From a virus, in UHGV virus genome UHGV-0183637: a stretch of DNA of 36,660 bases; one strand, 5' to 3'. The notes under the pieces were generated by a model. It was not told where the DNA came from. It ran no database searches and saw only the letters and a program-made list of their open reading frames with translations. Made by a program: the position numbers and the translations under genes. This document shows positions 2,517 to 21,871 of the stretch, in pieces. Each line of letters starts with the position of its first letter. Position 1 is the first letter of the stretch.

Positions 2517-4559
2517 GTGTGGTTTGTAGTGCGGGATTGCCTGGGATTATCCGGTTTTCCATCAGCAGAAAAAAACATCCGGGCACGTCTGGATCGTCTT
2601 GCTGAAAATAACCCGGAATGGAAGCGCAAGCGTGAAGGCACCAAAGCATTCGAGTATCGCATCGACTGCCTGCCCGCTGAAGCGCAGAAAGTTTTACGTA
2701 AGCGCCTGACCCATCAGGTCCTGGAAGATGCACAACTGCCCGCCGTAGTTGAGCAGAAAGCAGTTAAAAACGTCGCCGTTCGCGATGAACTGGAGGTGAT
2801 GGTCAAATGCCCGGAGCTGGCATTACGCGAAGTCCAGTCACTGACCGACAAGCAAAAGGCCATCGCTGATGCGCGGATATTGCTGGCTACTGAAGTGCAT
2901 AAGCTGCGCGAGTATGCCGGAATGACCAGGAAGGCCGCTTTAAAGCACATCGTTGATGGTGTGCGCATGGGGGCGTTACCTGACCGCATTATCGAAGCAG
3001 CGAATACTGCAAATGCACGTCAGGGAAAGCGAACCGGTGTCAGCACCGGCAGCCTGGATAGCTGGTACTCCAGCTGGGTGATGGCGCGCGGTGATGCCAA
3101 TCAGTTACTGGCGTTACTGGCTCCCGGTCATCATAAGGGAACACCGTGGGAGCAGGTCTGGTGGTTGAGCGATTTCTTTATGTTCTATCGCTCATGGAAG
3201 CGCCCGACCGTTGAATACGCGTATCGCGAGTTTTCAGCCTGGTGGCATGAAAAACACGCGAATGATGCGGGAATGCTGGCGGCACTGCCTTCAGTTCACG
3301 CAGTAAGACGGGTGTTAAGCAGCGTCCCGGTGATTGTTAAAGAGCGTTTCCGCTCCACCGGTTCAGCCTGGCGTTCGCTCAATCCCTTTGTGCGGCGCGA
3401 CTGGACATCGCTACCGGTTAATGCGGTATGGGTCGGAGATGGTCACTGTATGAAAATGACCGCGTTTAACCCCCTGACCGGCAATATTTTCCGGCCAGAA
3501 GTGACGCTGGTTATGGATGCGGGGCAGCGTTTTGTTGTGGGATGGTCACTGTCCCTGTCGGAGAACGTGATAGCTGTTGCTGATGCGTTGCGTTACGGCA
3601 TGGCGCAGCACGGGATACCGCTGATTTATTACTCCGATAACGGGGGCGGTGAAAAAAACCGGGTTCTTGATGCCGATATTACCGGGATTCTCCCCCGGCT
3701 GGGTGTGGAACATCACACGGGGATACCAGGTAACCCGCAGGGGCGCGGGGTGATTGAAAGGCTTAACAAGGAAATTCCCCGGGATGTGGCCCTGAGTTTC
3801 CAGACGTACTGCTCAAAGGGAGCAGACAAGGAAACCGTAATGATGCAGCAACGGATTATGCAGTCAGCCATTAAGGCCACCCACAAAGGGAAAGAACTGA
3901 CAAAACGGCAGGTTAAGGCGAGGGATGAAGTCCCCACCTTTGAGCAACTGATGGCAGCCATAGAACTGGAGGTCAGACGCTATAACAACCGGCCACACAG
4001 CAGCCTTCCCCGCAAAGAGGATGGCGAATATTACAGCCCGGCAGCGTATCGCCGGAAACTGATAAAAGAGCAGAATGTTGAAATTGATTTCCTGTCGCCG
4101 GAAGAACTGCATGAAATGTTCAGACCGGAAGTGACGCGCAAAACATTTCGCGGGGAAATTCAGTTATTCAACAATATTTATTACTCGTATGAGCTGGCCG
4201 CAGAGCACGGGAATGAAGTCAGGGTCAGTTACGATATTCATGATGCAAACAGCGTCATTGTCCGGCGGGCTGATGGCTCTTATATCTGCGATGCCATCTG
4301 GAACGGTAACAAGGTTGATGCCTTCGCTAAACCAGTTATCGAGCAAAAACTGGAGAAACGCGTCAGAGGCCGCATTGCACGGGCCGCGCAGAAAATCGAA
4401 GAGGCTAAACGCGAGCTTACCCCGGCTATTACGCAGAAGCCTGAGTTTAATCTGGGATATGGACTGGAACGCCAGGAGAAAAAGGAAAAAGAAGAACTTT
4501 ATTTATTCGCATCTGAACGCGAGCGCAATTTAAAGAAAAACGGCACAAACAACCGTTAA
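2517..4559 (+). CDS. Mu-type DDE transposase (MuA-like)
   Basis: 680 aa, GTG start after an AAGGTGGA RBS. N-terminus M-WFVVRDCLGLSGFP parallels MuA MELWVSPKECANLPGLP (enhancer/operator-binding domain). Central region WVGDGH...LVMDAGQRFVVGW...YYSDNGG is consistent with a Mu-family DDE core. Confidence 0.9.
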   Translation: MWFVVRDCLGLSGFPSAEKNIRARLDRLAENNPEWKRKREGTKAFEYRIDCLPAEAQKVLRKRLTHQVLEDAQLPAVVEQKAVKNVAVRDELEVMVKCPELALREVQSLTDKQKAIADARILLATEVHKLREYAGMTRKAALKHIVDGVRMGALPDRIIEAANTANARQGKRTGVSTGSLDSWYSSWVMARGDANQLLALLAPGHHKGTPWEQVWWLSDFFMFYRSWKRPTVEYAYREFSAWWHEKHANDAGMLAALPSVHAVRRVLSSVPVIVKERFRSTGSAWRSLNPFVRRDWTSLPVNAVWVGDGHCMKMTAFNPLTGNIFRPEVTLVMDAGQRFVVGWSLSLSENVIAVADALRYGMAQHGIPLIYYSDNGGGEKNRVLDADITGILPRLGVEHHTGIPGNPQGRGVIERLNKEIPRDVALSFQTYCSKGADKETVMMQQRIMQSAIKATHKGKELTKRQVKARDEVPTFEQLMAAIELEVRRYNNRPHSSLPRKEDGEYYSPAAYRRKLIKEQNVEIDFLSPEELHEMFRPEVTRKTFRGEIQLFNNIYYSYELAAEHGNEVRVSYDIHDANSVIVRRADGSYICDAIWNGNKVDAFAKPVIEQKLEKRVRGRIARAAQKIEEAKRELTPAITQKPEFNLGYGLERQEKKEKEELYLFASERERNLKKNGTNNR

Positions 4560-4577: not shown

Positions 4578-5471
4578 ATGAGTTTAATTACGCAATTAAA
4601 TGACGTAATGGCCCGTCGCGGCTATACGCAAACCCACGTCGCCCGTGCTATTGGTCGTAGCAGCGCCGTTATCAACCAGTATTTACAGGGTAAATATCAG
4701 GGCGATATGGCTGATATTGAAGAACGCATTTCTGCCTTTGTGACCCGTGAGCGGGAAAAGGAAAACAGCCGCCGTATTAAAGCGAAATTTGTTGCCACCG
4801 GTATGGCTGCCAAAGGACTGGAGGTGTTGGCCTATGCTCACCTGGAATGTGAAATCTGCGTACTGTATGGCGCGGCAGGTCTTGGCAAAACAATGATTCT
4901 GCGTGAATACGCCGCCAGAAACCGGGATGCGGTCCTGATTGAAGCCGACCCGGGCTATACAGCCAGAACACTGCTTGAGGAGTTGTGCCGCCAGCTGGGG
5001 GTAAAGGTTCGCGGCAACATTCACGAACTGATAGATGCCTGTGTGCGCGAACTGCGTGATTCCGGTCGCCTGCTGATGGTGGACGAGGCTGAACTGCTCC
5101 CCTATCGCGCACTGGAGGTTCTGCGTCGTCTGCATGACAAAGCGGGTATCGGGGTTGTCCTGGCGGGTATGCCTCGTCTTCTGATTAACCTTAAGGGGCG
5201 TCGTGGTGAGTTCGCCCAGTTATACAGCCGTGTGGCGCTGGCGCTTAACCTGGGCGATACGTTGTCGCAGGAAGATTTTAACCAGATAGCTACCGGGTTG
5301 ATGCCGGAAGCAGCAGAACCGGAAATCAGCGAGGCGCTTTACGCACGCTCGCTGGGTAATGCCCGCCGCCTCTTCAAACTGGCGCGCGGTGTGTACCGGA
5401 TTTGTGATATCAGCGATGCACCGGTCAGTGTGCAGGCCATTGATAAATTCGCAGAAATGTTAATTCACTGA
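4578..5471 (+). CDS. Transposition ATPase / target DNA activator (MuB-like AAA+)
   Basis: 297 aa. N-terminal HTH-like segment (GYTQTHVARAIGRSSAVINQY), Walker A GAAGLGKT, Walker B LLMVDEAE. Immediately downstream of the transposase gene. Confidence 0.85.
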   Translation: MSLITQLNDVMARRGYTQTHVARAIGRSSAVINQYLQGKYQGDMADIEERISAFVTREREKENSRRIKAKFVATGMAAKGLEVLAYAHLECEICVLYGAAGLGKTMILREYAARNRDAVLIEADPGYTARTLLEELCRQLGVKVRGNIHELIDACVRELRDSGRLLMVDEAELLPYRALEVLRRLHDKAGIGVVLAGMPRLLINLKGRRGEFAQLYSRVALALNLGDTLSQEDFNQIATGLMPEAAEPEISEALYARSLGNARRLFKLARGVYRICDISDAPVSVQAIDKFAEMLIH

Positions 5472-10779: not shown

Positions 10780-11031
10780 ATGAGATGGGTTGACCTTTTT
10801 ATTATCGCTCTGATTGTTACGGGTATTGCGCTTTGTGTGACAACTAACAAGGCTTCTGATGATGCGAAAAATGGGCATTGCGTGGTAAAGAGAAATTTCA
10901 TCAAAACCATTACGCATTGTGATGATGGAAGCGCCACCATGACCGACGGAGATAAGTTTATTTATTGCTCTGCGGGGAAAAATGGCACGCCATCCTGTCA
11001 TGAAGTGACGCTCGGTGATGGTGATAAATAA
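10780..11031 (+). CDS. Small membrane-anchored Cys-rich protein
   Basis: ATG at 10780 (MRWVDLFIIALIVTGIALCVTTNK...), N-terminal hydrophobic anchor then a soluble part with five Cys. Confidence 0.55.
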   Translation: MRWVDLFIIALIVTGIALCVTTNKASDDAKNGHCVVKRNFIKTITHCDDGSATMTDGDKFIYCSAGKNGTPSCHEVTLGDGDK

Positions 11032-11390: not shown

Positions 11391-11760
11391 AGCCGGTCAG
11401 GCGTATCTGGGGTGGGATGATGCCCTTTATCGTCAGACGCTGGCCCGCCTGACCGGTAAAACCAGCACCACACGCTGCAACCTCGATGAACTGCGCATCA
11501 TCCGGGAATACATGCATGAACAGGGATTTCCGCGTAAGGCACCCGCCGGTAAAGGTCGCCGCCCCCGTGTTGCAATGAGCAGAAAATCGATATTATCCAA
11601 AATTGAAGCGTTGCTGGCTGATGCCGGTCGTTCCTGGGCGTATGCAGAAGGACTGGCATCTCACATGTATAAGCAACATGTGATCGAATGGCTGACAGAT
11701 GATCAACTGTTTGGGGTGATGGTGGCGCTGGTTAAAGATTCAAGAAGGAGAAATCAATGA
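11362..11760 (+). CDS. GemA-like regulatory protein (Mu gp16 family)
   Basis: ATG at 11362 after GAGGA; MLKKMIGAIKAGQAYLGWDDALYRQTLARLTGKTSTTRCNLDELRIIREYMHEQGF resembles the GemA family and sits upstream of the Mor/C-family gene, as in Mu. Confidence 0.7.
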   Translation: MLKKMIGAIKAGQAYLGWDDALYRQTLARLTGKTSTTRCNLDELRIIREYMHEQGFPRKAPAGKGRRPRVAMSRKSILSKIEALLADAGRSWAYAEGLASHMYKQHVIEWLTDDQLFGVMVALVKDSRRRNQ

Positions 11761-12233
11761 TGAAAAAATGGTTGTTTTGTTTAGTAGGAGTTATTTTCTC
11801 TTGTTCTGCGCTGGCTCAGACAGAGGAACAGGCGCAAAAAGAACTGAAACGTTATCAGGATATGAAGCCATTGGCTGAACAGATGCTTCGGGAAAGTGGA
11901 AAACTTTATTACGCTATGCCAGCGGCAGCATCGCAGTACCAGCAGGGGAATATTGAAGAGTGGAAGAATATCAAAAAAGGACTAAAACAACTGGATGAAC
12001 AGGCCAGTAAACTGGGGGACGACCCGCTTGATCCTGTGTATGGTTCCTGCATAAAAATGAAAAACCAGCTACAGGATTACTGGTCTAACGTTATCAGGGA
12101 TGACAGGCAGTTTCTGGAACGTTCAAGAAATCAGTTTAAAGAATATCGTATGGATTGTTTTGATTCGTTTGTTTTTGGTAAAGAGCAAATAGAATCAAGA
12201 AAAGGCCTGGTTATTCTAGACCTGACTAAATAA
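11757..12233 (+). CDS. Secreted (periplasmic) protein of unknown function
   Basis: ATGA overlap with the GemA-like stop; signal peptide MMKKWLFCLVGVIFSCSALA then QTEE; AT-rich codon usage; followed by a rho-independent terminator. Confidence 0.65.
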   Translation: MMKKWLFCLVGVIFSCSALAQTEEQAQKELKRYQDMKPLAEQMLRESGKLYYAMPAAASQYQQGNIEEWKNIKKGLKQLDEQASKLGDDPLDPVYGSCIKMKNQLQDYWSNVIRDDRQFLERSRNQFKEYRMDCFDSFVFGKEQIESRKGLVILDLTK

Positions 12234-12333: not shown

Positions 12334-12801
12334 ATGCAGACCTTCAGTGAAACAGATCTTCGCGATGCGCAGGCACTGCTGCCCGATTCCGTGCAGCAAC
12401 TGATTAGCGTGATTGGCTTCCCCGCCCTGACCCGGTTAATCCGTTCTTTTGGTGGCGTGACGTTAAGCGGTAAAACCGGCGCACACGCCGAACGAACCGG
12501 CGGTGTCCATGCCCTGTTACATGATGTGCTGACCGAAGACGAAATCAACAAACTGATCCGCTTTCTTGGCGGTGCACCGTTTTACATTCCCCGTTGCGAT
12601 CATGCGTTACGTGCCCTGCGTAACACCCGTTTTATGGCTGATTTACAGCAGCATGTAAAAGACGGATGCTCACACCGGCAGGCGCTGGCACTGCTCTGTC
12701 CCCGTTACGGGATTTCAGACCGGTATGCATGGCAACTGATACACCGACGACAAAAACAGACTTCGCTGAAAAGCCCCACCCAGGTGGGGCTTTTTGATTA
12801 A
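12334..12801 (+). CDS. Mor/C-family transcriptional activator
   Basis: 155 aa; FLGGAPFYIPRCDHALRALRN matches the GG..YIPR signature of Mu Mor/C, with a C-terminal HTH (YGISDRYAWQLIHRR). GGAGA RBS 7 nt upstream. A GC-rich stem-loop plus T-run overlaps the 3' end. Confidence 0.8.
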   Translation: MQTFSETDLRDAQALLPDSVQQLISVIGFPALTRLIRSFGGVTLSGKTGAHAERTGGVHALLHDVLTEDEINKLIRFLGGAPFYIPRCDHALRALRNTRFMADLQQHVKDGCSHRQALALLCPRYGISDRYAWQLIHRRQKQTSLKSPTQVGLFD

Positions 12802-13116: not shown

Positions 13117-13143
13117 CCCATCCAGATAATCAACCTGCCGGGG

Positions 13144-13156
13144 GTGCTGAACACCC
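13144..13156 (+). promoter_or_regulatory. Conserved 13-mer GTGCTGAACACCC, copy A (putative late promoter/activator site upstream of the lysis genes)
   Basis: Exact 13-mer shared with 20702 and 32651; the extended dyad GGGTG-CTGAA-CACCC and following CAGCAGTACCC resemble copy B. Confidence 0.5.
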
Positions 13157-13303
13157 CCAGCAGTACCCACCACACCAGACCGTTTACCCTGTCCACTCAG
13201 ACCACAAGGCACCTTAAGGGATAGCGCCCTGCAAAAGGCTTTTGTGCCTTTGACAGGGTGTTATTTACGGGCCGTCAGTGGCTCAGATTTACAGGAGAAA
13301 CTC

Positions 13304-13717
13304 ATGTCTGAACCCTTATCAGGCGGCGGAGCTGTGGCAGTCACCATCGGTGGTGCCAGTGTGTTTGGTCTTCTCACCAATACCGATTTCGGGGTTGTGG
13401 TGGGCGCGTTTGCCGGGGCGCTTTTTGTTGTCACGCAGCAGAAAGAAATCCCGGTATGGCGAATGGCTATTCACCTGCTCGTCGCGTTTGTGGTTGGCGT
13501 TCTGGGGGCTGGCGTGGCTGCGTCACTGATGCAGTGGCTGACCCACTACAACGACAAGCCGCTCGATGCATTGTGTGCGGTCGGTGTCTCGGCATTATCC
13601 ATCAAGATACTGACCTTTTTTTATCAGCAGGAAATCAAAGTCCTGCTCGGTATGTTCTCAAAACTGTTCAACCTCGTATCAAAGTTGTGCGGTGGAGGGG
13701 GTGAAAATGGAAAGTAG
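13304..13717 (+). CDS. Holin-like multi-pass membrane protein
   Basis: ATG at 13304 after CAGGAGA; 137 aa with several Gly/Ala/Val-rich hydrophobic segments; first gene of the lysis cluster. Confidence 0.55.
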   Translation: MSEPLSGGGAVAVTIGGASVFGLLTNTDFGVVVGAFAGALFVVTQQKEIPVWRMAIHLLVAFVVGVLGAGVAASLMQWLTHYNDKPLDALCAVGVSALSIKILTFFYQQEIKVLLGMFSKLFNLVSKLCGGGGENGK

Positions 13718-14003
13718 CTTTGCCGGTATTGTGAACGTCTGGCTGTGTCTCGCCATTGTGCTGGGGTTGTTTATGTATCGCCGCCACGGCGCAGCGCATA
13801 AACCAATGATTACCTGGCTGGCGTACTGGCTGATGCTCGGCTACGGCGTCATCCCGCTCCTCTGGCTGACGGGGTCACATACGCACTCCAGCTGGCTGGC
13901 GGTGGCACTGAATCTGGTTTTCTGTGCGCTTATCGTGTGGGCGCGCGGGAATTTGTCAAAAATCCTTTCGTTACTGAGGCATCCACATGAAATCAAAAGA
14001 TGA
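13707..14003 (+). CDS. Small membrane protein (holin/antiholin-like)
   Basis: ATG at 13707 after GGAGGGGG; 98 aa with about three predicted transmembrane segments; overlaps the endolysin start. Confidence 0.55.
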   Translation: MESSFAGIVNVWLCLAIVLGLFMYRRHGAAHKPMITWLAYWLMLGYGVIPLLWLTGSHTHSSWLAVALNLVFCALIVWARGNLSKILSLLRHPHEIKR

Positions 14004-14532
14004 CATTTTTGATGAAGTCCTGGGCAAAGAAGGCGGTTACGTCAATCACCCGGATGATAAGGGCGGCCCGACCAAATGGGGCATTACGGAAAAAGTCGCC
14101 CGCGCCCACGGATACCGTGGCGATATGCGTGAGTTAACCCGCGAACAGGCGCTGGATATCCTTGAAGCCGATTACTGGTATGGCCCGCGATTTGACCAGG
14201 TCGCCGCATTATCCCCTGATATTGCCGCAGAGCTGTGTGATACTGGTGTGAATATGGGGCCAACCGTGGCGTCCAGAATGCTTCAGCGCTGGCTGAACGT
14301 TTTCAACCTGCGCGGCAGGCTGTACCCGGATATGGATACAGACGGACGCATCGGACCTCGCACCATCAGTGCATTGCGCGCCTTCCTGAATAATCGCGGT
14401 CAGGACGGTGAGCGGGTGATGCTGACGGCCCTGAACTGCACGCAGGGTGACCGCTATCTGGAACTGGCAGAGAAACGCGAGGCTAACGAATCGTTTGTTT
14501 ATGGCTGGCTGAAGGAGCGCGTGGCGGTATGA
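13987..14532 (+). CDS. Endolysin, GH108-type with peptidoglycan-binding domain
   Basis: N-terminus EGGYVNHPDDKGGPTKWGIT matches the GH108 signature as I recall it; 181 aa; located between membrane proteins and a small lipoprotein. Confidence 0.8.
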   Translation: MKSKDDIFDEVLGKEGGYVNHPDDKGGPTKWGITEKVARAHGYRGDMRELTREQALDILEADYWYGPRFDQVAALSPDIAAELCDTGVNMGPTVASRMLQRWLNVFNLRGRLYPDMDTDGRIGPRTISALRAFLNNRGQDGERVMLTALNCTQGDRYLELAEKREANESFVYGWLKERVAV

Positions 14533-14711
14533 CGCGTCAGCACTGGACACACAGAACGCCACGTAAAGCCGCGCGCTGTGTTCTGGCCCTGTTTCTGGTG
14601 ATGTTGCTTCCGGTGGGATGCACAGACATTAACAGGGCGGGCCAGCTGTTTGACGCGGCGGCGCAGGTCTGCCGGATTGTTGACGGCATCCGGCAGTGCT
14701 CACAGAACTGA
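14529..14711 (+). CDS. Small lipoprotein-like protein (possible spanin component)
   Basis: 60 aa; hydrophobic CVLALFLVMLLPVGC followed by a soluble tail; ATGA overlap with the endolysin stop. Confidence 0.4.
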   Translation: MTRQHWTHRTPRKAARCVLALFLVMLLPVGCTDINRAGQLFDAAAQVCRIVDGIRQCSQN

Positions 14712-14732: not shown

Positions 14733-15053
14733 ATGAAACAAAAAGAAAACACCGCGATTGCACTGGTGGAAGCCGCTGTTCCCGGGCGTCCCTTTAAGTT
14801 CGGACTGACGCAGGTTGTGGCTTTGCACGTCAGCGGAGAATGCGGGGAAATTAAAGCCCGTACCCAGTATGCAGATGGTGAAAACCGTTATCTGGTTTAT
14901 TACCAGGACGCCCGCAAGGCAGCACAGCTGAAATGGTTTGGCGAGTCCATGCTGGAAATGATTGAGGATATCCGCCATCCCGGAATGCCTGTATTTGCAG
15001 TCACCGAACTACCTGATGGCGCAACGGTTTCAGATACCCGGAAGGGCGTTTGA
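14733..15053 (+). CDS. Hypothetical protein
   Basis: 106 aa; between lysis and terminase genes. Confidence 0.55.
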   Translation: MKQKENTAIALVEAAVPGRPFKFGLTQVVALHVSGECGEIKARTQYADGENRYLVYYQDARKAAQLKWFGESMLEMIEDIRHPGMPVFAVTELPDGATVSDTRKGV

Positions 15054-15553
15054 TGGCGTGGTCACAGGATATCAGGGACAAAGTCCGTAACGGGTACATC
15101 TTTGACCAGCTTCCGCTGGATATCGTCGCCATGAAGTACGCCGTGCCGCACGACACCGCGCGGCGCTGGAAAACGCAGGCGATGAAGAACGGCGACGACT
15201 GGGACAAGCTGCGAGCCGCGCACGCGCTCGCCGGTGACGGGCTGGAAAGTGTCGCCCGCACCGTGCTTATCAGTCTGGTGGTGAAGTGTCAGACGACGCT
15301 TGAACGGCTGAACCAGAACCCGGACATCCCGCCGCAGGAGTCCGTCGAACTGCTGGCGAGTCTGTCTGACAGTCTCAGTAAGGCGGTGGCTAGCAGCAAA
15401 AAAATCCTGCCGGAAACCGACCGGCTCGCCACGGCACTGGAAGTGGTGCAGCGGCTCGGCGCGTTCATCAAGGAGCGTCACCCGGCACAGTATGCCCCGT
15501 TTCTTGAGGTGCTCGAAGGCTTCGCTAAAGAGCTTGAGGATAATTTCAGTTAA
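15050..15553 (+). CDS. Putative terminase small subunit (Mu gp27-like)
   Basis: 167 aa immediately upstream of the terminase large subunit; N-terminal region looks DNA-binding. Call is by position and size. Confidence 0.5.
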   Translation: MMAWSQDIRDKVRNGYIFDQLPLDIVAMKYAVPHDTARRWKTQAMKNGDDWDKLRAAHALAGDGLESVARTVLISLVVKCQTTLERLNQNPDIPPQESVELLASLSDSLSKAVASSKKILPETDRLATALEVVQRLGAFIKERHPAQYAPFLEVLEGFAKELEDNFS

Positions 15554-15605
15554 CCACAGCGGCCCGGTTTTCCGGGCCGTCTGATATTTGTATACCAGGT
15601 GTGAC

Positions 15606-17246
15606 GTGGCAAAACGTAAACTTTCCATTAAAGAGTTTCAGAGAAGCTTACAGGAGTACATCGCCAACCTCCGCCAGACCATTGAGGCTGAATGTCTGGG
15701 GTTCGATGTTAACCCGCAGGCCACACAGGCCCGCCGGGCGGCAGTCTGCGACCCGGTGACGGGCTACGATTATTTTGTCGAAAACTATTTCCCGCACTAC
15801 GTCCGCAACCCGGCAAAAAGCGAGCTGCATAAATACCTGTTCATCCGTCTGCCACAGGTTGTGGCAAGCCCGGACCCGGAGAACGACGCCATCGCCGCCC
15901 CCCGTGGTGAAGCAAAATCCACGCTGGTGACTCAGTTGTTTACCCTGTGGACCATTATCCGGGGTATTAAGCATTATCCGGTCATCATTATGGACAGTAT
16001 CGACCAGGCTTATCCGATGCTGGAAGCCATCAAGGCTGAACTGGAATTTAACCCCCGTTTAAAAAACGATTTCCCGGAAGTGTGCGGGCAGGGTCGCGTC
16101 TGGCGTATGGGGACCATCGTCACGGCCAACAATATCAAGGTGACGGTTGCCGGTAGTGGTAAAAAGCTGCGTGGCCTGCGCCACGGTCCGTACCGTCCTG
16201 ACCTGGTCATCCTCGACGACATCGAGAACGACGAGATGGTGCGTAACCCGGAGCAGCGCGACAAGCTGCATGACTGGCTCACCAAAACCGTGATGCCGCT
16301 GGGTGAGGCTGGCGGTAAAACCGATATTATTTATATCGGGACCATTCTGCATTACGACTCCGTACTGTCGCGCACACTCAATAACCCGATGTGGAAAACA
16401 GCCCGCTTTAAGGCCGTTATTCAGTGGCCTGCCAATATGAAGCTGTGGGACGAGTGGGAAGAACTCATCCGCAACAAACAGCCGGAAGCGGCGGAGGCAC
16501 TTTACCGGCAGAACGAAGCCGAGATGCTCGCCGGGTCGGTGGTGTCATGGGCGGCGCGCCCCCTGCTGGCACTGATGAAAATCCGTGTCCGTGACGGTCA
16601 CGACACCTTTGATTCTGAATACCAGAACGACCCGGTCAGCGGTGAAGACGCGCTGTTTGCGGGCTGCATTAAGTTCTGGGTTAACCGTCTTGATGAATGG
16701 GTGTTCTACGGCGCTGTTGACCCCAGTCTCGGGAAGAAGAATAAAAACCGCGACCCGTCGGCCATTCTCGTGGGGGGCTTTAACCGTTTTACCGGCATTC
16801 TGGATGTGGTTGAAGCCGATATCCGCCGACGTCTGCCGAATAAACTTATTGAAGACGTGATTAAGTATCAGCGGGAATACCACTGTCTGTGCTGGTCGTT
16901 TGAGTCCGTTCAGTTTCAGGAGTTTCTGCGTACCGTGCTGGTTGAGCGTTCGGCGGCGCTGGGCGTGCCGGTTCCGGCGCTGCCGGTCATCCCGCTGGAG
17001 GATAAGGCGCTGCGCATTGAGTCCCTTCAGCCGCATATGGCCAATGGCCTGATTCGTATCAGCCACACACATCAGACGCTGATTGACCAGCTGCGCCACT
17101 ACCCCAAAGCCGACCACGATGATGGCCCGGACTGTCTGCACATGCTGTGGACACTGGCGGTGTCGCGCAGCGCAAAATTTCAGATACACACCCCACGCAG
17201 CACCGGGCGTGACTGTGGCGGACGTTTTGGTTCAGGAGGATGGTAA
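15606..17246 (+). CDS. Terminase large subunit (Mu gp28-like)
   Basis: About 547 aa; GTG at 15606 after AGGTG (track TTG start 15588); size and position upstream of the portal gene; acidic motifs (LVILDDIEND) consistent with an ATPase/nuclease. Confidence 0.8.
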   Translation: MAKRKLSIKEFQRSLQEYIANLRQTIEAECLGFDVNPQATQARRAAVCDPVTGYDYFVENYFPHYVRNPAKSELHKYLFIRLPQVVASPDPENDAIAAPRGEAKSTLVTQLFTLWTIIRGIKHYPVIIMDSIDQAYPMLEAIKAELEFNPRLKNDFPEVCGQGRVWRMGTIVTANNIKVTVAGSGKKLRGLRHGPYRPDLVILDDIENDEMVRNPEQRDKLHDWLTKTVMPLGEAGGKTDIIYIGTILHYDSVLSRTLNNPMWKTARFKAVIQWPANMKLWDEWEELIRNKQPEAAEALYRQNEAEMLAGSVVSWAARPLLALMKIRVRDGHDTFDSEYQNDPVSGEDALFAGCIKFWVNRLDEWVFYGAVDPSLGKKNKNRDPSAILVGGFNRFTGILDVVEADIRRRLPNKLIEDVIKYQREYHCLCWSFESVQFQEFLRTVLVERSAALGVPVPALPVIPLEDKALRIESLQPHMANGLIRISHTHQTLIDQLRHYPKADHDDGPDCLHMLWTLAVSRSAKFQIHTPRSTGRDCGGRFGSGGW

Positions 17247-19998: not shown

Positions 19999-20546
19999 GC
20001 AGCGGTAAACTGGATATTAAGATTGATTTAAGCGCGTATAACACCACGCTGGGGAAACTGATTAGTTCCGTGAAGGACCGGCGCGACCTGATGACGGCGC
20101 TTGCAGGCTCCATGCTGGATGCGGTTGAGACTAACTTTGAACAACAGGGTCGCCCGAAATGGATGGGCTGGAGTCCGGCTTATGCGAAGCGACGCGGCCC
20201 CGGGCAAATCCTTCAGAAGTCCGGGCGACTGGCTGCCAGTATCCGCTCTGCGGTTAACAATAACGAAGCCACGGTCGGGACAAACGTCCGTTATGCCCGT
20301 ATCCACAACGAAGGCGGCGAAATCCGCCATCAGGCACGGACGCAGAACCTGTATTTTAAACAGTACAAAAACGGCAGCGTCAGCAGCCGTTTTGTGAAAA
20401 AGCGCAACAGTAATTTTGTGCAGAGCGCAACGGTCGGAGCGTATACAGTCAACATGCCCGCGCGTCCCTTCCTTCAGCTTGTGCAGGACGACATCGACGA
20501 GCTGGAGAACACCGCAAACCGCTATTTTGCGCGTGTGATTGACTGA
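19995..20546 (+). CDS. Virion morphogenesis protein (Mu G-like)
   Basis: 183 aa; ATGA overlap with the F-like gene; Mu G position. Confidence 0.75.
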   Translation: MSSGKLDIKIDLSAYNTTLGKLISSVKDRRDLMTALAGSMLDAVETNFEQQGRPKWMGWSPAYAKRRGPGQILQKSGRLAASIRSAVNNNEATVGTNVRYARIHNEGGEIRHQARTQNLYFKQYKNGSVSSRFVKKRNSNFVQSATVGAYTVNMPARPFLQLVQDDIDELENTANRYFARVID

Positions 20547-20701: not shown

Positions 20702-20714
20702 GTGCTGAACACCC
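20702..20714 (+). promoter_or_regulatory. Conserved 13-mer GTGCTGAACACCC, copy B (putative late promoter upstream of the protease/scaffold gene)
   Basis: Exact 13-mer in a 200-bp intergenic gap inside the otherwise compact head operon, 33 bp upstream of ATG 20747. Confidence 0.5.
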
Positions 20715-20746
20715 TCCACAGTACCCCGTGCTCCCCTTCCGTCATC

Positions 20747-21871
20747 ATGCCGCGTATGAAGATGAACATTGCGGCATTAAGCCTCGAAATCACCAAAGCA
20801 ACCCACAGCGAAATCCAGCTGTTTCCGGCAGGCGAGTTCAGCGCAGTGGATGGTCGCCCACATACCGATGAAGTCGAAAGCGGTAAATGGGTGCTGACTG
20901 CCGAACTGGCCGCGCAGCTTGTCGCACAGGTGGCAGCCCGTACCACGCCTTTTGTCATTGATTACGAACATCAGACGCTGCGCGCCGTAAACAACGGCAA
21001 GCCCGCCCCGGCGGCGGGCTGGTTCAGCCAGGTGGAATGGCGTGAAGGTGTGGGCCTGTATGCCATCGGTGTGGAGTGGACGGAGAACGCGGCGGCCATG
21101 ATTGCCGCCGGTGAGTACAAATTTATTTCCCCTGTTTTTGCCTACAACAAGCGCGGCGAAGTGCTGGAGCTGTTACATGCTGCGCTGACCAATACCCCGG
21201 CGCTGGACGGTATGGACGCGGTCATGCTGGCTGCGGCCAGTCGTCTGGCGAGTCTGTCAACTGAAACGGAGACCACAACGGTGGATGAAGAACTGTTAAA
21301 CAATTTGCTTTCCGACCTGCGCTGGATGCTTAACCTCCCGGTGACCTCAACGGCGGAAGATATCAAAAACGAGCTGCAAAAGGTCGTTGACATGATTTCG
21401 AACGGTCAGGGAACGGCGGCGGCATCCGTCAGCCTGCTGGCCCTGCTGAATCAGAAAGACGAGCAAATCGCCAGCCTGTCAGCAAATGCCTATGACCCGA
21501 CGAAGCATATCCCTCTGACGGCATATGAAGAACTTCAGGGGCGTTATGCCGCACTGGCGCAACAGTCCGGTGAGGCCGAAGCCGGGGCACTGATTCAGGC
21601 GGCGCTGTCTGACGGACGCCTGCTTCCGGTACAGGAAGACTGGGCGAAAGATTACGCCAGCCGCGATATCAACGGTTTTAAAACATGGCTGGAAAAAGCG
21701 CCGAAAATTGACGCGCTCAGTCAGACCCAGACCGGCGGCAAGCCACCCAAAACGCCGTCGCCTGCCCCGGCGCAGATTAAAACCGGCGATGACGTCGATG
21801 TCGATATCGCCATTTGTTCAATGATGGGCGTCGATCCAGAGGATGTCGCCCGTTACGCAGGAGACGAGTAA
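20747..21871 (+). CDS. Head maturation protease/scaffold protein (Mu I-like)
   Basis: ATG at 20747 (the track's GTG at 20702 lies inside the promoter-like 13-mer); about 374 aa; position between G-like and major head genes. Confidence 0.75.
   Translation: MPRMKMNIAALSLEITKATHSEIQLFPAGEFSAVDGRPHTDEVESGKWVLTAELAAQLVAQVAARTTPFVIDYEHQTLRAVNNGKPAPAAGWFSQVEWREGVGLYAIGVEWTENAAAMIAAGEYKFISPVFAYNKRGEVLELLHAALTNTPALDGMDAVMLAAASRLASLSTETETTTVDEELLNNLLSDLRWMLNLPVTSTAEDIKNELQKVVDMISNGQGTAAASVSLLALLNQKDEQIASLSANAYDPTKHIPLTAYEELQGRYAALAQQSGEAEAGALIQAALSDGRLLPVQEDWAKDYASRDINGFKTWLEKAPKIDALSQTQTGGKPPKTPSPAPAQIKTGDDVDVDIAICSMMGVDPEDVARYAGDE

Follow-up and report, generated by a model that had tools for sequence, protein, structure and literature searches.

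How does a phage of a Gram-negative host breach the outer membrane when its genome carries no recognisable spanin? The question is open for 91 of the 677 genomes (about 13%) in the census of Kongari et al. (2018, PMC6139136). The disruptin of phage phiKT is the one alternative to the spanins described to date. The UHGV virus genome UHGV-0183637, a 36,660-nucleotide stretch of DNA that was analysed as a whole and is referred to here as the window, raises this question with the lysis cassette at positions 13,304 to 14,711. The cassette encodes two holins (holA and holB), a GH108 endolysin and, as its last gene, lipo60, a predicted small lipoprotein. The holins and the endolysin are ordinary, and the lipoprotein is catalogued but uncharacterised, in the form of a probably mis-paired outer-membrane spanin subunit (o-spanin). 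We assign a probability of about one half to the reading, drawn from sequence comparison, that lipo60 is a stand-alone (orphan) outer-membrane lysis lipoprotein which works without a phage-encoded inner-membrane subunit.

The original prediction, made without database searches, described a lipoprotein-like open reading frame (ORF) of 60 residues that is coupled to the endolysin gene by an ATGA overlap, and this description holds. The lipo60 start codon overlaps the endolysin stop codon TGA at 14529-14532, and the product (MTRQHWTHRTPRKAAR-CVLALFLVMLLPVG-C31-TDINRAGQLFDAAAQVC48RIVDGIRQC57SQN) shows the hallmarks of a lipoprotein signal, with a basic n-region (codons 1-16), a hydrophobic core and the lipobox LLPVG/C, where Cys31 is encoded at 14619-14621. 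The match to the PHROG family phrog_7528, annotated as "unknown function", covers lipo60 from end to end (Table 1).

The family is small, with 21 representatives at 50% identity in a profile search of 1.84 billion proteins, which gave no link from the lipo60 family to known spanins. Relatives are encoded in 287 IMG/VR stretches, and the named hosts are all enterobacteria (Escherichia, Salmonella, Citrobacter, Cronobacter, Yersinia, and Lelliottia). Comparisons of lipo60 with Pfam, NCBIfam and PDB profiles yield no meaningful relative; at E ≤ 10, the window protein and six homologues find nothing in Pfam except a chance match of one homologue to a BRCA2 repeat (E 0.19). Our literature search for experimental work on this lipoprotein found none.

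The main comparison covers 89 loci, made up of the window, E. coli genomes, phage records, 3 GTDB genomes and 80 IMG/VR contigs, with flanks of up to 4 kb; together with distant family members, about 100 loci were examined. The ORF is intact in 88 loci, with 60 codons and ATG at codon 1. The ratio of nonsynonymous to synonymous substitution rates (dN/dS) is 0.27 between the Mu-type and the lambdoid-type copies, 0.21 within the lambdoid type, and 0.11-0.20 for the mature part. lipo60 is a real, selected gene, and this purifying selection led us to reject the idea of a chance ORF or a remnant. Unexpectedly, the first nine codons (codons 2-9) have a dN/dS of 0.11-0.14, which identifies M1 as the true start rather than the internal methionine used in the 51-residue annotation of the phage phiP27 homologue. 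The n-region motif MxR[KQ]HWTHRxPRxAA[KR] (14529-14576) is constrained as strongly as the mature peptide, and no overlapping gene explains this constraint.

G30 and C31 are invariant in an alignment of 25 sequences, where C48 and C57 are kept in at least 90%, and all four residues are invariant in an alignment of 17 sequences. C48 and C57 are also conserved in the distant family members. The Mu-type copies, including that of the window, share the lipobox LLPVG/C with a proline at position -3 (Pro28), outside the usual consensus [LVI][ASTVI][GAS]C, while 41 lambdoid variants have the canonical LLVG/C. Lipoprotein processing is likely for the family and unproven for the window copy. The +2 residue is threonine in the window and valine, alanine, serine or glycine in the homologues, and never aspartate; the threonine means that lipo60 has no inner-membrane retention signal.

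The mature part extends from Cys31 to Asn60 (30 residues, 29 of them after the predicted lipid-modified cysteine), is free of proline and is predicted to be helical. It has a net charge of 0, a heptad-like spacing of hydrophobic residues and a moderate amphipathicity, with a hydrophobic moment (muH) of 0.49 that is reached by 13% of shuffled sequences. These features suggest a disulfide-stabilised oligomer and not a lytic peptide.

Search for an inner-membrane partner

Apart from the cassette genes, a six-frame hydrophobicity scan of the window shows no plus-strand ORF with an N-terminal transmembrane domain (TMD) and a periplasmic domain besides tm83 and sp158 (Table 1), and a lipobox scan of the window shows no second plausible lipoprotein. 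We rejected tm83 and sp158 as hidden spanin parts, as they are early-region accessory genes with no annotated function, variable in sister prophages and absent from the E. coli prophage tcmA_3, which has the same cassette. The tcmA_3 prophage is a complete sister inserted between melR and melA, and its RefSeq annotation lists no spanin; nor is a spanin annotated in the complete genome of phage phiSTEC1575-Stx2k. When five representative inner-membrane spanin subunits (i-spanins), namely the lambda-type Rz of phage GER2, the Rz of SPN1S, a Klebsiella i-spanin, BcepMu gp23, and D3112 gp22, were searched by tblastn in the window, the tcmA_3 prophage and phiSTEC1575-Stx2k, nothing better than E ~1 was found.

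The lipo60 gene is neither embedded in, nor overlapping with, nor adjacent to an i-spanin gene, and no conserved i-spanin gene adjoins its homologues (lipo) in the about 100 loci. The original prediction had seen no two-component spanin pair and had named a canonical pair elsewhere in the prophage as the finding that would overturn it; no such pair emerged from the window, the complete sister prophage or the surroundings of lipo. Its suggestion that the outer-membrane step might use a single small lipoprotein or an unrecognised component is supported, and the comparison of loci goes further, with lipo always accompanying a holin-endolysin unit and holding the slot of Rz/Rz1 in related phages. 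The suggestion is qualified by the phiP27 homologue, which is already catalogued as a putative o-spanin (PMC6139136).

Kongari et al. (2018, BMC Bioinformatics 19:326, PMC6139136) list phiP27 with a "separated" two-component spanin, both parts being singleton families: an i-spanin of 64 residues (20348-20542) and an o-spanin of 51 residues (20706-20861), whose periplasmic parts together amount to 62 residues, the lowest total recorded in the census. The o-spanin is a homologue of lipo60, with 58% identity over all 60 residues. The i-spanin ORF (3170-3364 in the phiP27 locus, L003) has a TTG start, belongs to no PHROG family and runs antisense to a 90-residue ORF with a match to phrog_36812. 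The segment with this ORF occurs in only 4 of the 89 loci and not in the window. On the grounds of its rarity, its start codon and the family-supported gene on the opposite strand, we rejected the 64-residue protein as a conserved partner. The i-spanin call is probably spurious, and the phiP27 pairing is not supported, leaving the lipoprotein as an apparent orphan. The published o-spanin start is nine conserved, selected N-terminal codons too short, and the published spanin assignment would be corrected in both parts.

The catalogue entry for phiP27 is one reason to ask whether lipo60 is the o-spanin half of a pair whose inner-membrane partner was missed. Such a partner could be holA or another phage membrane protein, the product of a small ORF that lacks annotation, or a protein of the host located in its inner membrane or periplasm. 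LambdaSo is an earlier case in which nested spanin genes escaped notice (bioRxiv 10.1101/2024.01.23.576932). The i-spanin ORF of phiP27 itself, for the reasons just given, does not favour this explanation. The gene order is constant in the 89 loci, holA-holB-endolysin-lipo, where the endolysin is either a GH108 or an M15 enzyme and an insert may precede lipo. In 55 of the loci, lipo abuts the endolysin gene, with a 4-nucleotide (nt) overlap after GH108 and a gap of 13-15 nt after M15, which leaves no room for an extra gene, and the exchange of GH108 for M15 excludes a partner nested in the endolysin gene.

The remaining loci carry inserts of 250-870 bp with opposite-strand genes or single-TMD ORFs of 37-75 residues, among them the S57 family (phrog_4493), and no insert product resembles an i-spanin. 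The S57 ORFs (37-57 residues, C-terminal TMD; found, among other places, at L004 3326-3499 and L005 2130-2282) immediately precede lipo in about 27 IMG/VR loci of the phiP27-like type, a position that would suit a small unannotated partner. However, the window has no ORF of the S57 type, and these proteins extend beyond the membrane by some 15 residues at most; we rejected them as the partner. S57 may be an uncharacterised lysis accessory. A 144-residue protein with an N-terminal TMD (phrog_6169) is encoded 245 nt downstream of lipo in L094, one of the loci with a divergent lipo, and in this locus only.

As to holA as the partner, it stands beside lipo60 in nearly all main-family loci, but the periplasmic loops of holA and holB are short, as seen from their sequences. 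Furthermore, the distant members lack holA and holB beside lipo and have a PF05106 holin instead, with a PF16931-domain protein about 1.7 kb upstream in L092 and L093. Altogether, a missed partner appears quite improbable to us.

Place and putative role of lipo60 in lysis

Relatives with a similar backbone or similar holins show which function is usually encoded where lipo60 is found. In D3112, which has the same backbone from Mor to DUF1804 and TerL, an Rz-like spanin pair lies between the endolysin and the DUF1804 gene. SPN1S and the Klebsiella prophage ST16-OXA48phi5.3, both with homologous holA and holB, have Rz/Rz1 directly after the endolysin. BcepMu carries an embedded Rz/Rz1 pair. In the Shiga toxin (Stx) phage GER2, the S57 ORF precedes Rz, and lipo is present only as a frameshifted remnant further downstream. 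The spanin placement in D3112, SPN1S and the Klebsiella prophage, together with the coupling to the endolysin, indicates that lipo60 holds the position of the outer-membrane-disruption function. An outer-membrane role for lipo60 is thus suggested by its position and conservation.

The company of lipo varies. The GH108 and M15 enzymes are each found in both Mu-like and lambdoid backbones, and divergent relatives of lipo60 (37-50% identity; Lelliottia and metagenomic contigs) follow a lambda-S-type PF05106 holin and a GH108 or M15 enzyme. Overall, lipo is found with three holin families and two endolysin families, always downstream of the holin-endolysin unit. With holin, endolysin and tail partners changing in this way, the lipo gene tracks the lysis function and not a particular partner or tail type.

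Two loci, L090 and L091, contain a Q antiterminator, a PF05106 holin, an M15 endolysin, a lipo homologue and one hydrolase gene, followed by tail and baseplate genes without head genes; they could stem from a prophage that has suffered a deletion, or form a cluster of the tailocin type that employs this cassette.

In the lambdoid prophages L098 (1555-2295; 4932-6075) and L100 (394-1625; 3416-4556), a pertussis-like toxin is encoded on the upstream side of the cassette, and LT-II heat-labile enterotoxin genes lie on its downstream side. Rac-SA53 (L100) is without lipo. The genes stx2e in phiP27 and stx2k in phiSTEC1575 are located upstream of the cassette, in parallel to the toxin position in these two loci. 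As the cassette adjoins toxin genes in converting phages of medical relevance, namely the Stx2e phage phiP27, the Stx2k phage phiSTEC1575 and the LT-II prophages, it may affect toxin release.

Under the reading that lipo60 is an orphan outer-membrane lysis lipoprotein, holB as a class-I-type holin would build up in the inner membrane with holA as its co-holin or antiholin, and trigger. The holin lesion would free the soluble cytoplasmic GH108 muramidase, which would then degrade the wall. The lipo60 prolipoprotein would be exported by the Sec pathway, lipidated at Cys31 and then, as its +2 threonine predicts, delivered to the outer membrane's inner leaflet, where the helical 30-residue mature part would probably be cross-linked via Cys48 and Cys57. 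There, lipo60 would serve as the outer-membrane-disruption factor of the cassette, in place of the Rz/Rz1 complex of the relatives. Once the wall is gone, it might bridge or perturb the two apposed membranes, or destabilise the outer membrane directly.

Several points weigh against this reading. What assigns the lipo60 family its role is the position of the gene. A mature lipoprotein of 30 residues is too short and cannot span an intact periplasm, and its neutral, moderately amphipathic sequence does not look like a membrane-lytic peptide. The AlphaFold2 model of lipo60 is a single low-confidence helix (predicted local distance difference test score, pLDDT, of 67), which is uninformative on the Cys48-Cys57 region. 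With proline at -3, the window lipobox lies outside the PROSITE pattern PS51257, so that this copy may be processed slowly or not at all. The conservation of the cytoplasmic n-region hints that lipo60 has a function at the inner membrane, which is outside every model considered here. Finally, lambda can lyse its host without spanins when the culture is agitated and low in Mg2+, so a phage can simply lack an outer-membrane disruptor.

A different explanation, which we consider unlikely, makes lipo60 a late-expressed component of the envelope with no disruptive effect on the outer membrane. It could then regulate the timing of lysis or inhibit lysis by acting on the holin, or act in receptor masking or superinfection exclusion like Llp of T5 or Cor, and the phage would be truly spanin-less, as the proportion of phages of Gram-negative hosts without a recognisable spanin given above would allow. 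A dN/dS as low as that of the n-region, which is predicted to be cytoplasmic, is not usual where a sequence serves export alone, and it suggests that lipo60 interacts with something on the inner-membrane side; the mature part, short and featureless as it is, does not look fusogenic. However, lipo occurs with holins of at least three unrelated families and with endolysins of two, which makes a specific regulatory partner unlikely, and with contractile Mu-like, lambda-J-type and other tails, which makes a receptor-specific role unlikely. The flanks of lysis genes are a known hotspot for accessory genes, as the toxin genes around the cassette in L098 and L100 illustrate, but lipo60 is translationally coupled to the endolysin and not separately expressed, sits exactly in the Rz/Rz1 slot of the relatives, and is degenerate in GER2, the single carrier with Rz. 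Should lipo60 have no effect on the outer membrane, the prophages that carry it, widespread as they are, would lack a spanin altogether, and the conserved lipoprotein would be a new kind of lysis accessory.

Holins, endolysin and prophage setting

The original prediction placed two multi-pass membrane proteins before a GH108-type endolysin for which no N-terminal signal-anchor-release (SAR) anchor was apparent. Family matches and hydrophobicity support each of these points (Table 1).

The holA protein has four hydrophobic segments, corresponding to about four TMDs with a predicted N-in/C-in topology, and is putatively a holin or an antiholin partner (co-holin) of holB, which it precedes in nearly all main-family loci. 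The holB protein has three TMDs, and its basic first loop and basic C-terminal tail indicate an N-out/C-in, class-I-like topology. Homologues of holB in D3, SPN1S and Klebsiella prophages carry a holin annotation; experimental literature on PF16931 or PF05449 holins was not found in our search. Directly at the holB start, the sequence GTG-AAA-ATG (13701-13709) would encode Met-Lys-Met if the GTG were used, which recalls the dual-start motif of lambda S107/S105. The holB gene of phiP27 does not preserve this motif, and the ATG is the start better spaced from the Shine-Dalgarno sequence. Alternative-frame ORFs within holA and holB (13278-13529 and 13456-13704) were rejected, as their hydrophobic stretch is not kept in the phiP27 counterpart.

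The endolysin is classified from its domains as a soluble GH108 N-acetylmuramidase with a PG_binding_3 domain. Its N-terminus (MKSKDDIFDEVLGKEGGY) is hydrophilic, and the absence of any hydrophobic segment over its 181 residues implies that it has no SAR or signal sequence and depends on the holin, as is the case for a canonical soluble endolysin in contrast to a SAR endolysin. It is closely related to the solved muramidase Sen1395 (PDB ID 6V3Z; E 8e-107, about 85% identity counted from the alignment) and to the typhoid toxin muramidase TtsA (PDB ID 6V40), with a further weak match to the NCBIfam entry "holin-associated N-acetylmuramidase". The endolysin behaves as a swappable module, where a GH108 muramidase and an M15 peptidase alternate between the holB and lipo60 flanks (the window compared with L019-L029 and L003). 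This alternation in Mu-like and lambdoid backbones points to recombination joints at the gene boundaries.

Table 1. Coordinates and matches of the cassette genes and of other features in the window
Feature	Position	Strand	Length	Description
MuA-type transposase ORF	2517-4559
AAA ATPase ORF	4578-5471
tm83	10780-11031		83 aa	N-terminal TMD; Cys-rich tail (five Cys); phrog_8391
sp158	11757-12233		158 aa	signal peptide; helical; possible lipobox VIFSC; no family match
Mor activator	12334-12801			PF08765; phrog_836
Hairpin	13135-13163			GC-rich, 13 bp; between orf95 and holA
holA	13304-13717	+	137 aa	PF16931 Phage_holin_8, E 2.3e-21; phrog_198 "holin", E 2.6e-39
holB	13707-14003	+	98 aa	PF05449 "putative 3TM holin", E 2e-18; phrog_217 "holin", E 4e-31
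Endolysin	13987-14532	+	181 aa	PF05838 GH108, E 7e-27; PF09374 PG_binding_3, E 4e-26
lipo60	14529-14711	+	60 aa	predicted prolipoprotein; phrog_7528, E 4e-43
orf106	14733-15053	+		phrog_1935, E 1e-36; no Pfam match; no TMD; cytoplasmic
DUF1804 protein	15050-15553
TerL	15588-17246			followed by portal, Mu-F-like, protease, gpT-type capsid, tail sheath, tape measure and baseplate genes

The window is a near-complete Mu-like (transposable) prophage of a temperate phage of the D3112/BcepMu type. Flanked by Mor on one side and by the DUF1804/TerL packaging genes on the other, the four plus-strand cassette genes overlap in series (11 nt for holA and holB, 17 nt for holB and the endolysin, and the ATGA of the endolysin and lipo60), which marks them as one coupled unit. 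With PF16931, PF05449 and GH108/PG_binding_3 proteins encoded together in the late region, the unit is a holin-endolysin cassette as known from tailed phages of Gram-negative hosts, and it forms the late lysis operon of this temperate phage.

The cassette is 95% identical to that of E. coli tcmA_3 and about 94% identical to that of the enteropathogenic E. coli strain E2348/69. RefSeq names the sister genes "phage holin family protein" (twice), "glycoside hydrolase family 108 protein" and "hypothetical protein". A nucleotide search with the cassette gave no match among isolated phages, indicating that this Mu-like phage has no cultured representative.

In the 187-nt gap between orf95 and holA, where the late lysis operon begins, lies a perfect 13-bp GC-rich hairpin (CTGCCGGGGGTGC...GCACCCCCGGCAG type) that has no T-run on the plus strand and could serve in regulation or in RNA stability. 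The gene orf106 frequently comes after lipo60, in Mu-like as well as in phiP27-like phages (3807-4154 in the phiP27 locus); only some of the loci have it, and in E2348/69 it is truncated. Searches of Pfam and PDB found no relative of its product, which is probably not a lysis protein.

Comparison with known lysis systems

Among the known systems close to lipo60 is the phiP27 "o-spanin", a true homologue, which shares the lipobox region, the two conserved cysteines, the mature length and the upstream holA and holB genes. The two differ in their setting, as the phiP27 gene lies about 490 nt from an M15 endolysin gene with an opposite-strand gene in between, whereas lipo60 overlaps a GH108 endolysin gene.

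Like the Rz/Rz1-type o-spanins (lambda Rz1, D3112, BcepMu, and SPN1S), lipo60 is a small predicted lipoprotein of the outer-membrane type, encoded by the last lysis gene and carrying cysteines in its putative periplasmic part, and it shares its genomic slot with the two-component o-spanins of phages with the same backbone or holins. It has threonine and not aspartate at +2, as expected for an o-spanin sorted to the outer membrane, and C48 and C57 would be able to form intermolecular disulfides. In contrast to these o-spanins, including that overlapped with gp22 in D3112 and the gp23/gp24 pair of BcepMu, lipo60 has no embedded, overlapping or adjacent i-spanin gene and no sequence similarity to them. 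Its mature part has 30 residues, lacks proline and is predicted to be helical, whereas o-spanins have at least 40 residues and Rz1 is proline-rich and unstructured. A mature part of this length falls into the shortest class in the census of Kongari et al. (PMC6139136).

The unimolecular spanins of the T1 gp11 type resemble lipo60 in being encoded by a single gene in the spanin slot and in having an N-terminal lipoprotein signal. However, lipo60 has no C-terminal TMD and a mature part far too short to span the periplasm; its sole hydrophobic segment is the signal peptide (residues 14-34), and its C-terminus (...DGIRQCSQN) is polar.

The phiKT disruptin gp28, which we take not to be a lipoprotein, is comparable to lipo60 as a small single-component alternative to spanins in a phage without a spanin pair. 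It is outlined as a cationic, antimicrobial-peptide-like outer-membrane disruptor (bioRxiv 10.1101/515445). A disruptin is a cationic amphipathic peptide without an export signal, whereas lipo60 has a lipoprotein signal for export, a net charge of about 0 and only moderate amphipathicity, its muH being unexceptional.

The colicin lysis proteins, which we take to be the Pfam family Lysis_col (PF02402), and the bacteriocin-release lipoproteins (BRPs) are similar to lipo60 in their very small size (about 30 mature residues), their expression with envelope breakdown and a possibly functional signal peptide. They differ from lipo60, which shows no sequence relationship to them, has a helical, cysteine-containing mature part and belongs to a holin-endolysin cassette. 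The likeness raises a variant of the orphan-lipoprotein reading in which lipo60, perhaps helped by a stable signal peptide, activates the host phospholipase OmpLA and in this indirect way makes the outer membrane permeable. BRPs are generally known as mature lipoproteins of 27-35 residues, the same size class as lipo60, and the conserved lipo60 signal peptide with its n-region recalls their functional, stable signal peptide; the proline at -3 of the lipobox could slow processing. We nevertheless regard this variant as very unlikely: the Pfam search at E ≤ 10 relates lipo60 to no family, colicin lysis proteins included, BRPs are generally known to lack cysteines in a mature part that is not predicted to be helical, and a phage with a holin and an endolysin needs a fast, terminal disruption.

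Set beside these systems, the preferred reading of lipo60 as an orphan outer-membrane lysis lipoprotein can, tentatively, be widened to its family. The lipoproteins of the PHROG 7528/phiP27 type might form a new class of single-component outer-membrane disruptors, with about 30 mature residues, two cysteines, a possibly functional signal peptide and no phage inner-membrane subunit. They would replace Rz/Rz1 in Mu-like, phiP27-like and lambdoid (Stx- and LT-II-converting) prophages of Enterobacteriaceae, and with a gene of 60 codons, the family provides a compact and directly testable candidate.

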